From positions 59,272,001 through 59,336,000 of the forward strand of contig OX597817.1 in assembly GCA_951406725.2 (NCBI GenBank): a stretch of 64,000 nt of DNA, given 5' to 3'. Of this stretch, positions 7,501 through 50,950 are shown in pieces. Under the pieces are notes generated by a model. It was not told the DNA's origin. It saw nothing but the letters and a program-made list of their open reading frames with translations, and searched no databases. This DNA comes from Octopus vulgaris (taxonomy: Eukaryota). How positions within the stretch are numbered: the stretch's first letter is position 1; every line of letters begins with the position of its first letter. The position numbers and the translations under genes are program-made.

Positions 7501-8085
7501 AGGCGGCGAGCTGGCAGAAACGTTAGAACGCCGGGCGAAATGCTTAGCGGTATTTCGTCTGTCGTTACGTTGTGAGTTCAAATTCCGCCGAGGTCGACTT
7601 TGCCTTTCATCCTTTCAGGGTCGATAAATTAAGTACCAGTTACGCACTGGGGTCGATGTAATCGACTTAATCCCTTTGTCTGCCCTTGTTTGTCTTCTCT
7701 GTATTTAGCCCCTTGTGGGTAGTAAAGAAATAGGTATTTCGTCTGCTGCAACGTTCTGAGTTCAAATTCCGCCGAAGTTGACTTTGCCTTTCAGCCTTTC
7801 GGGATCGATTAAATAAGTACCAGTTACGCACTGGGGTCGATGTAAACGACTTAATACCTATGTCTGTCCTTGTTTGTTCTCTGTATGTTTAGCCCCTTGT
7901 GGGTAGTAAAGAAATAGGTATTTCGCTACGTTCTGAGTTCAAATTCCGCCGAGAGTGACTTTACCTTTCCTCCTTTCAGGGTCGATAAATTAAGTACCAG
8001 TTGAGTACTGGGGTCGTTGCAATCGTCTTAAACCCCCCCCCCCCAAAAAAAAATTCTGTCCTTGTGCCTATAATGAAAAGGATTA
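7501..8085 (+). mobile_element. SINE family A: head followed by a 184-bp body unit repeated about 3 times
   Basis: Units start with ggtatttcg at 7549, 7733 and 7917. The core gcctttcatcctttcggggtcgataaattaagtaccag resembles the conserved Meta-type SINE central domain (recalled from knowledge, not checked). Confidence 0.85.
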
Positions 8086-13785: not shown

Positions 13786-13841
13786 TACATGTATATATGT
13801 GTGTGCGTGAGTGTGTATGTACGTTTATATGTATGTACATA

Positions 13842-13905
<64 letters not shown>

Positions 13906-14081
13906 CAGCTTAGAGAAGAAGAAGAAACGAAACGAAACCAAACGAATCGAATCGAATCGACGCGAAGGCGCTCAGTCATACAATAGTGTAATAAATAAAA
14001 TATATGCATACATACAAACATATATGTACGTACCTACATCTACATGTATATATACATGCATATATAAATATATATACGTGT

Positions 14082-14400
14082 GTACAGGACACCACAAATA
14101 GACGTAGAACTCAACGAGAAACGAAAACGTAAAAACAGCATGGAACGGACCATTTTTTTAACAACGAAAAAACAGAGTACAAGACAACTACACAAGGAAA
14201 AATCCCCCTTCATCAGCTGTCCCTAGTTCAACTCCAGCGTGTTTCGAAAGTGAGGACAGAACACGTCTCGTCGAACTAATCCTTCCTGCGAAAGAATTCA
14301 ATAAAATTCCTTTGCAGAGGGGTAAAAACAAGGAAAAAAAAGTGACAAAAACAGGACGTAAAAACAATACAGTTAAAAACAAATACAAAATAAAAATACA
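14082..14400 (-). mobile_element. PLE pLTR-like element (family P2) carrying a permuted hammerhead-like motif
   Basis: U-rich on the minus strand, ends in tggtgtcctgtac, homologous to 41431-41591, flanked by TA/CA microsatellite. Confidence 0.6.
14204..14265 (-). ncRNA. Hammerhead-like RNA with non-canonical (pseudoknotted) strand order
   Basis: Minus strand reads cgtGT T ctgtcct ca ctttc GAAAC acg ctggagttgaacta gggacag CTGATGA A ggggg. Stem III acacg/cgtgt, stem I ctgtcct/gggacag, stem II ctttc/ggggg. Confidence 0.65.
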
Positions 14401-14970
14401 ATTACATACATACATATGCATATATATACATATATAAATGTATACATGTGTGGGTGTATATTTACATATTTACATACATTCATACATAAATACGTAATAC
14501 ATACGTACATACATACACACACATATGCATACATATATACATATATACATACACACACAATACATACACACACATATATACATGCATACTTATATGCATA
14601 CATGTAACGGTAGGGCTATGTAATTTGAGAGAGATCACCTACTATTTCTAGCAGGTCGAAATTTATTATAAATGGTAAGTAGGGAGAAAACAAAAAACAT
14701 AGATTTGTAAAATCTAGTCTCAATCGTATGAAATGAATTGACTTTTCTCATGGGTGTTAGTCATACAGAAAAATAATGATTATAAATAATTTGATATATA
14801 TTCTAAAATTCAATGTAAAAAGATATTTTGAAACCGTGGGAAAAATAAAAGTGTGAAAAACTTGTATCAAAAGTTTCTAGTGATATTTCCACCTCCACTA
14901 TTTCTATATATTCCCTCACAATTTTATTCTTAGCACGGTTTTTAACGGTCAGTAACATTGAAAGACTAAC

Positions 14971-31446: not shown

Positions 31447-31998
31447 CACACATACGTATATATATATATATATATACATACACACACACACACACGTATA
31501 TATGTATATATACGTGCACCACACACACACACATTCATCCCCTCGCTCTCTCTTTCTTTCTTTCTTTCTTTCAGTCAACCCACCCCACTATTGTGCTCTG
31601 CTTTATTGAAATTCCTGACTGTTGACACCGATGAGTTTTGTAAATCGAAATAACAGATGAAACCATCAGTAGATATCAAACTTAGCACACACACACACAG
31701 AATACACACACACGCACACACACACAAAGCACATTGGTAGAGTACCGGTCATAAACGACGGAGTTTCTCCCCCCCCCCCTCTCTATCTCTCTCCCTCCGC
31801 TTTCAATCATTTTTAATCTGATCAAGTCTTGCTCCATTTTCTTCGTATATTTTTTTTGTTTCCTTTCAGTTACATTTCTTCTTTTTATCTACACTTCGTC
31901 ATTCTCCCTTCGTTATCATTCACGAATTTCTGTCCCTTTCTCCTTCTTTCTGCCTCTGTCATTCTCTTTTTCTACACACACATACACATACACATTAC

Positions 31999-32094
31999 AG
32001 CACCGGTTCTCGTCCGATCACCGAACTTAAGCAACGTTGATCCTAGTGAGTACTTAGATGGGTGGACCGCTTGGGAAACCTAGGTGCTGTAAGC
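31999..32094 (+). pseudogene. 5'-truncated 5S rRNA pseudogene
   Basis: agcaccggttctcgtccgatcaccgaacttaagcaacgt...agtacttagatgggtg-gaccgcttgggaa-acctaggtgctgtaagc aligns to metazoan 5S rRNA from about nt 24 to the end. Confidence 0.9.
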
Positions 32095-32110
32095 GTCTCA
32101 CAATTGTTAT

Positions 32111-34041: not shown

Positions 34042-34796
<755 letters not shown>

Positions 34797-41432: not shown

Positions 41433-41591
41433 TAGAGTAGATGAAACCTTAGCAACTGAAGAAGAGGTTTTTTCGTTGTGTTAATTGTCCTGTACTCCAT
41501 TTTTTGTTGTTTTTAAAAAAATGTCCAGTTCCTTTGGTTTGTGTCTGTTTTCGTTTCTCTTTGTGTTCGACGTCCCTTTGGTGTCCTGTAC
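41431..41591 (+). mobile_element. 5'-truncated relative of PLE-like family P2, starting directly after (TA)n
   Basis: gagtagatgaaaccttagcaa CTGAAGA A gagg ... tggtgtcctgtac aligns with the reverse complement of 14082-14240. Confidence 0.6.
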
Positions 41592-41672
41592 TCATATATG
41601 CGTGTATATGTACATGTAGAGGTAGGTACGTACATATATGTTTATATATATGCATATGTTTTATTTCATTTA

Positions 41673-50533: not shown

Positions 50534-50950
50534 AATACCTATTTCTTTACTACCCACAAGGGGCTAAACACAGAGGGGACAAACAAGGATAGACAAACGG
50601 ATTAAGTTGATTACATCGACCCCAGTGCGTAACTGGTACTTATTTAATCGACCCCGAAAGGATGAAAGGCAAAGTCGACCTCTGCGGAATTTGAACCCAC
50701 AACGTAGCGGCAGACGAAATACCTATTTCTTTATTACCCACAAGGGGCTAAACACAGAGGGGACAAACAAGGACAAACATAGGTATTAAGTCGATTACAT
50801 CGACCCCAGTGCGTAACTGGTACTTTATTTATCGACCCCGAAAGGATGAAAGGCAAAGTCGACCTCGGTGGAATTCGAACTCATAACGTAACGGCAGACG
50901 AAATACCGCTAAGCATTTCGCCCGGCGTGCTAACGTTTCTGCCAGCTCGC
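50534..50950 (-). mobile_element. SINE family A dimer (184-bp units), flanked by a duplicated gcaaccagtaatacc
   Basis: Head at 50950; unit junctions near 50720 and 50536; gcaaccagtaatacc occurs at 50525 and 50949. Confidence 0.9.

Follow-up and report, generated by a model that had tools for sequence, protein, structure and literature searches.

A candidate pseudoknotted hammerhead opened between A9 and G10.1 in octopus repeats and other animal retroelements

Can a hammerhead core whose strands follow none of the three familiar orders belong to a working ribozyme? The question is raised by the minus strand of a 64,000-nt stretch of the Octopus vulgaris genome (the window), where a core with stems I and III was found at 14265–14204 in the order S-G-C, that is, cleavage block, GAAA block and CUGAUGA block. 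The motif has the CUGANGA of C3-A9, G12-A14, the A15.1-U16.1 pair and an H at position 17, and its stems I, III and II (the last with an upstream strand) are correctly set against the core, with compensatory changes. It fits none of the circular orders CGS, GSC and SCG, which are types I, II and III. A descriptor covering all six orders gave this single match in the whole window; block-shuffled windows gave 0 matches in 200 at the observed stem lengths and, with looser lengths, 7 in 200, two of them with the S-G-C order. Rfam hammerhead models matched neither the window nor five further loci. The first-pass annotation, which called the order ACB, had described a complete core, stems I and II joined tip to tip by a short link, and a pseudoknotted fold that would escape descriptors of types I–III. 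All of this was borne out, with a stem III of 5 bp as it had said, a stem I of 6–7 bp where it gave 7, and a link of 2–3 nt. Its view that the topology had not been described was mistaken, since ACB is the type SGC of Eckert et al. (2023, PMC10085705), in which cleavage was shown. The full motif extends over 14322–14205, past the annotated coordinates, and what had been missed there, helices x, IV and V together with the retrotransposon setting, is where the novelty sits. Relative to most copies, the window copy has one C-to-U change and one extra G; with U17 as the base at the cut and two added G-U pairs, it may be a slow ribozyme.

The partner of stem II could not be decided from the family of the window copy alone, because both pairings are possible there: the strand preceding GAAA has a partner 5' of the cleavage block in 40 of 44 window-family copies and with the bases after CUGANGA (at least 4 bp) in 35 of 44. 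Outside this family the corresponding counts were 42/58 and 2/58. An earlier set of 34 non-window copies gave an upstream stem II (at least 4 bp, 19–24 nt upstream of U16.1) in 22 and a downstream one in none, with 6 and 12 in shifted-window controls. Looser family patterns found another 595 and 1165 matches, where their controls gave 0 and 104; 129 distinct copies were fetched, 60 of which retained block S. The pattern matches L164, L303 and L306 were removed as chance before counting. Pairs were counted with anchored scripts in place of a covariance model or alignment-based counts, because MAFFT misaligned the diverged families. For 14 representatives, own and swapped partners scored 5.93 vs 3.84 in stem I, 2.86 vs 1.15 in stem III, 5.14 vs 3.25 in the upstream stem II and 1.00 vs 1.05 in the downstream stem II, with several pair types at each position; these representatives, intact copies selected by eye, are related to one another, and their p values overstate independence. 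Compensation across families upheld stems I and III of the first-pass annotation and gave no such signal for its stem II, built on the G run after CUGAUGA-A, which is probably wrong. In a blind test, a metagenome scan run with no stem II term, 8 of the 118 matches listed had stems I and III; the upstream stem II was 5–6 bp long in all eight, and the downstream pairing amounted to 0 bp in seven and 3 bp in one. The upstream duplex was also stronger in locus L004 (-5.7 vs -2.6 to -3.1 kcal/mol), and in the window the downstream AGGGG matches a CCCCU at the far 5' end of the motif, forming stem IV rather than stem II. Taken on these counts, stem II probably forms with the strand upstream of the cleavage block and not with the bases after CUGANGA, and the continuous block C of type SGC, with a stem II strand straight after CUGANGA, is absent from the motif.

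The link between A9 and G10.1 was replaced by two extra helices, IV and V, in 60/80 copies and 11/16 clusters, with the two ends of the chain lying in stem IV. The distance from the end of hairpin V (-3 kcal/mol or lower) to G10.1 is at most 3 nt in 68 of the 80 copies, and in most clusters the hairpin adjoins G10.1 with no linker, while the bases just 3' of A9 pair (at least 4 bp) with those just before V in 60/80, against 2–35% for control strands. Own partners in stem IV formed 4.75 bp and swapped partners 2.35 bp. Nested folding of 14330–14196 produced IV, V, x and III unprompted, at a modest z of -1.6. Stem IV is the weakest helix, being absent in 5 of 16 clusters, and when the core was kept unpaired, IV and V appeared together in just 8/82 copies, by a method that sets an energy cost on a 65-nt loop. 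In the window family, which is U-rich, 34/38 copies also gave at least 5 bp with a shifted upstream window, and with a longer flank the preferred fold was a hairpin hiding stem I and the core, again with modest z-scores (-1.6). From these pairings we infer that the motif is an SGC circle whose A9-G10.1 bulge has been expanded into a four-way junction holding the chain ends. No tested precedent for a four-way junction at A9/G10.1 was found in the literature searched.

The far sides of stems I and II are joined by helix x, as in type SGC, with 5.36 vs 4.60 Watson-Crick pairs of 8 for own and swapped partners, the weakest contrast among the 14 representatives. Stem III leads through a 3-nt bulge and tandem G-A pairs into helix x. 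A kink-turn consists of a 3-nt bulge followed by tandem G-A and A-G pairs between two helices. In the 14 representatives the 1b-1n pair was G-A in 14/14 and the 2b-2n pair A-G in 12/14, the GA of the b strand having been required by the pattern; on the 5' side, GA was kept in 56/60 copies though it was in none of the looser family patterns. The hinge is plausibly kink-turn-like, turning x back toward the tips of stems I and II so that a monomer could fold. It varies among carriers: the window family has two extra bases, one R2-like family has a 6-nt one-sided bulge instead, and coral and clam-shrimp Naiads have, by eye, other III-x joints with no kink-turn. These variant or absent hinges keep a dimer among the alternatives weighed below. 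In the hinge of a Naiad_Ovul-like family (L032–L060), position L3 is a U and the tandem G-A pairs are followed by a U-U pair, features that we take to resemble those of box C/D kink-turns and that suggest, by analogy, binding of the host 15.5K protein.

Table 1. Features of the motif and its carrier in the window, with positions counted from the first nucleotide of the window.
Feature	Position	Strand	Remarks
Stem IV, 5' strand (CCCCU)	14318..14322	-	Watson-Crick partner of AGGGG
Hairpin V	14286..14317	-	adjoins stem IV and G10.1, no linker
Stem II, 10.n strand (GAAGG)	14281..14285	-	G10.1 at 14285, separate from A9; probable, from upstream pairing counts
Helix x, 5' strand	14270..14279	-	counterpart of the stem I-II 'interaction' helix of type SGC
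Hinge, GAGA side	14266..14269	-	GA immediately 5' of stem III in 56/60 copies
Block S	14254..14265	-	stem III strand 14265-14261 (U16.1 at 14261); U17 at 14260; stem I strand 14259-14254; predicted cut 14260/14259
Block G	14238..14250	-	stem II 11.n strand 14250-14246; GAAA (G12-A15.1) 14245-14242; stem III strand to 14238
Hinge, 3-nt bulge and GA side	14233..14237	-	GA was in search patterns, so its conservation is not independent
Helix x, 3' strand	14223..14232	-	continues directly into stem I
Stem I strand and core	14210..14222	-	stem I strand 14222-14217; CUGAUGA (C3-A9) 14216-14210
Stem IV, 3' strand (AGGGG)	14205..14209	-	directly after A9; stem II strand of the first-pass annotation
5'-truncated copy of the 760-nt non-coding repeat	13901..14406	-	unit positions about 270-760; Penelope-like insertion structure
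(TA)n tract	13826..13901		abuts the 3' end of the element

The carrier of the window copy is a dispersed repeat with a unit of about 760 nt that is non-coding, its longest ATG frame being 96 aa. It has 1914 candidates in the genome, of which the 40 scored are 96–100% identical, and the 37-mer from C11.1 to A9 occurs in 314 exact genome copies against 0 in the control. The window family shares with Naiads (PMC8557442) its (TA)n insertion, partial tandems, inverted 5'-truncated copies and a core motif near the 3' end: copies are 5'-truncated and often have their own 3' fragment or an inverted fragment in front of them, and TATATA or (TA)n follows 18 of 20 terminal ends (loci L001–L030). Unlike Naiads, it lacks an ORF, and no similarity to a Naiad was detected at the DNA level. 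The repeat contains no Naiad ORF (N-terminal GIY-YIG plus RT), Naiad RT queries had no match in 60 family loci, and comparison with the best-scoring Naiad or R2-like candidates returned simple repeats and separate insertions only. No autonomous partner of the family was found by upstream extension, with the 5' part of the unit or with RT and endonuclease queries, and a pattern for older relatives gave one match. Of the upstream tandem fragments, counted by hand at 19 places, 14 begin at unit position 474 or beyond, two at 410 and three earlier; with the predicted cut near unit position 417, they fit cut-site processing but also plain 5' truncation. Four contig sets, which we guess to be RNA, cover parts of the unit and are uninformative on ends, strand and level.

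Several other repeats were noticed in the window. An older, 76% identical fragment of the same repeat family lies at 41453–41666 (+); it keeps CUGAAGA and the 3' part, and its upstream end is cut off at a (TA)n tract. A 5S rRNA-like copy at 31980–32095 (+), above the Rfam gathering score and with broken pairs, is probably a pseudogene. Tandem arrays of a 184-nt unit, which presumably resembles a common octopus SINE-type repeat, occupy 7549–8031 and 50534–50907. Two 330-nt copies at 34110–34790, 99% identical and both beginning in (AT)n, either arose by a local duplication not long ago or are a small element that targets (TA)n.

Naiads, a group of Penelope-like elements, have been reported to lack canonical hammerheads; ten families were listed as 'HHR_core' and eight, Naiad_Ovul among them, as 'HHR_half_core', fitting no descriptor (Craig et al., 2021, PMC8557442). 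In the octopus genome the motif was found on the sense strand, 770–1620 nt behind 11/30 C-terminal matches of the Naiad RT and 2/20 more diverged ones, and one genome family matches, by eye, the 3' ends of the Naiad_Ovul and Naiad_Obim consensus sequences. Inspection by eye of the Naiad consensus sequences recovered the fold with IV and V in Acropora coral (three), Morbakka box jellyfish (one), Eulimnadia clam shrimp and two octopuses; the fold was doubtful in Beroe (Bfor, with a stem I of just 2 bp) and Euprymna (Esco, with only a degenerate hammerhead), and a clear hammerhead was not seen in Naiad_Omin, Adux, Ppla or 1_Skow. Seven nematode consensus sequences (Ppac, Parc, Nbra 1–3, Hcon and Hpol) hold, again by eye, a complete and uninterrupted type CSG hammerhead with helix x. 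The two published CSG ribozymes, which came from DNA metagenomes, might be animal retroelement DNA.

A second class of carrier emerged from the metagenome scan, where, among the matches listed, five of the eight with stems I and III follow closely on the end of a frame; the Atlas cluster nearest to this frame consists mostly of chordate members. This frame has 9983 candidates in the octopus genome and is similar to R2 proteins. By eye, the ribozyme region lies in the 3' UTR at 19/20 R2-like loci, 10 of which pass the filter; they form two distinct families, and some copies stand in tandem, 3.7 kb apart. The frame at L510 matched RVT_1 at E 8e-5, below the cut-off, and R2 proteins in the PDB at E 6e-5 and 9e-5. 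This carrier is a candidate RLE-type element of the R2 superfamily, a group in which the RT is followed by a C-terminal restriction-like endonuclease, and may belong to the clade HERO. A young family of the R2 superfamily, at loci L501–L511, has many open frames of about 1100 aa, and its copies occur in tandem at a spacing of 3.7 kb. Complete split-type motifs were also seen in two metagenome contigs, L352 and L451, where no neighbouring frame was recognised; in L352 a (TTA)n tract begins 240 nt downstream, and both are possibly further carriers. Viral contigs gave no sign of the motif: block S was present in 1 of the 119 loose matches listed (0/79 in the first 80 loci of the loose scan) and in 0/9 strict ones.

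Considering these results, we have proposed that the motif is a monomeric pseudoknotted hammerhead, an SGC circle opened at A9/G10.1, which would cut tandem or read-through retrotransposon transcripts into unit lengths; we give this reading a probability of about three in four. It draws on the sequence, the compensatory pairings across families and the genomic setting, from which we deduce the three-dimensional fold, the action as a monomer, cleavage and the role. Along the chain the order would be IV' - hairpin V - II(10.n) - x' - hinge - III' - cut site - I' - II(11.n) - GAAA - III - hinge - x - I - CUGANGA - IV. A four-way junction of the core, IV, V and II would take the place of the single bulged base of other hammerheads, and a second junction, of stems I, II and x, would hold the tips of I and II together, replacing loop-loop contacts. 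The kink-turn-like hinge would bend x back from stem III, so that one molecule could close both junctions. In the proposed setting, the sense-strand 3' UTR of Naiad and R2-superfamily elements and non-coding derivatives such as the 760-nt repeat, CUGANGA and stem IV would be transcribed last, and the ribozyme would be completed near the 3' end of the unit and cut after position 17. Tandem or read-through transcripts would thereby yield unit-length RNAs, as proposed for Penelope-like hammerheads (PMC4209133). The cleavage products are predicted to stay paired through stems II, III, x and IV, and the ribozyme could for this reason nick the transcript rather than release it.

The alternative that best withstands these data is a domain-swapped dimer, in which III and x would form a straight hairpin and the flanks of one copy (II 10.n, I and CUGANGA) would dock on the loop of another, requiring tandem or paired transcripts. 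Dimers have been proposed for Penelope-like hammerheads (PMC4209133), copies do occur in partial tandems, and the nearly continuous or non-kink-turn III-x joint seen by eye in clam-shrimp and coral Naiads would be hard to close as a monomer. We nevertheless consider it unlikely, as the tandem G-A pairs of the hinge, retained in the octopus-genome families at the frequency given in Table 1, make sense only for a bend, stem III has its full 5 bp, unlike dimer-type motifs, and type SGC constructs cleaved co-transcriptionally as single units (PMC10085705). Less likely again is a catalytically dead or very slow structured 3' element with a vestigial core, which would be recognised by the element's own reverse transcriptase or by a host protein. 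Its location near the 3' end needed for priming, the competing hairpins, the U17 of the window family and the many decayed copies (block S in 60/129) would suit such an element, but CUGANGA, GAAA, U16.1-A15.1 and G16.2-C15.2 are kept across unrelated element classes while helix sequences vary, and position 17 is A, C or U in the intact set, from which G was left out by construction. Very improbable is the plain type SGC fold of the first-pass annotation, whose stem II of 4–5 bp can be drawn in most window-family copies and whose one extra base at A9/G10.1 has precedent (PMC3705267, PMC10085705), since that strand scarcely pairs so in other families, shows no own-versus-swapped signal, makes the weaker duplex and has a Watson-Crick partner elsewhere.

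With the monomeric pseudoknotted hammerhead as the preferred reading, the evidence leans toward a widespread new form of animal hammerhead, with a doubly pseudoknotted core, a four-way A9-G10.1 junction, chain ends in a fourth stem and often a kink-turn bend, present in two unrelated classes of retrotransposon whose hosts range from cnidarians to cephalopods and probably include fish. If so, the motif would be the missing ribozyme of Naiads, whose lack of hammerheads had been used to argue that hammerheads may ride along in Penelope-like elements without being needed (Craig et al., 2021, PMC8557442), and the cores of the 18 Naiad families that fitted no descriptor in that study would fold as pseudoknotted hammerheads. 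Non-circular hammerheads, in the form of the motif and of type CSG, would then number in the thousands in the genomes of eukaryotes. For a hammerhead, the 3' UTR of an R2-superfamily element would be a new setting, as the R2-superfamily ribozymes known from the available sources are HDV-like and 5'. Eckert et al. (2023, PMC10085705) left open, in the text available, how x could be joined directly to stem III, for which the hinge here offers an answer; their six permutations were counted on the premise of an uninterruptible block C, whereas block C here would be interrupted. The new open position in the core might be useful for the design of ribozyme switches.

Ordinary hammerheads are abundant in the same genome. 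Loci L472–L491 hold type I-like families with a long loop II, distinct from the motif, one of which often occurs as inverted pairs 80–850 nt apart. A CSG pattern gave 1704 matches in the octopus genome (control 335), and 0/20 fetched places were CSG; about half fitted type I by script, and two, L476 and L488 (16586650–16587000 and 139284500–139284850 of contig C1), belong to a further split-type family with no GA hinge. Weinberg and co-workers are said to have described, in 2015, nested bacterial hammerheads and not a pseudoknotted class. Hammerhead variants with 'additional helices', attributed to them in PMC13725137, possibly share with the motif an extra helix in the core, as far as that secondary account goes. 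A search of the full-text literature, covering sources other than subscription journals and Repbase Reports, returned no non-circular animal hammerhead, no Naiad ribozyme and no A9/G10.1 junction, and 'type-SGC' occurred in one paper only (PMC10085705). Nothing comparable appears in the passages covered of a 2026 retrozyme preprint, a 2011 survey, two reviews, and ambivirus (2023) and virus (2026) papers.

Type I hammerheads of Penelope-like elements and non-LTR retrozymes resemble the motif in lying in a terminal repeat of a retroelement or short non-coding derivative, in their proposed processing of tandem transcripts and in an unpaired base at the 5' end of stem II, and differ in their nested fold and weak stem III (PMC4209133; bioRxiv 10.64898/2026.07.22.740005). 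Type CSG, known from two metagenome sequences, is another opening of the same hammerhead circle; unlike the motif, it has an intact block C, no IV/V insertion and its ends at stem III/x (PMC10085705). The closest relative is type SGC, the name given to the S-G-C order by Eckert et al. (2023, PMC10085705), who showed cleavage and compensatory rescue; according to the accessible text it was found in metatranscriptomes only, with none from genomes of known organisms, and 'Octopus' is absent from the accessible supplement. HRIMA-1 and its variants share with the motif the block order, helix x, all core bases and a short connection at the tips of I and II, and most HRIMA-1 rows have one extra base, mostly U, between A9 and G10.1 (PMC10085705), a step at which CChMVd tolerates an extra A (PMC3705267). 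The published SGC descriptors require CUGAUGAG or CUGAUGAUG and then stem II (PMC10085705), and so would miss the split motif. Block C is continuous in type SGC, whereas in the motif the 10.n strand lies upstream and helices IV and V stand where A9 would be bonded to G10.1; the hinge connects both strands of x with stem III, and the host is an animal retrotransposon. As judged by its strands and pairings, the motif would work like a type SGC hammerhead but lacks one feature that defines that type, the continuous block C.
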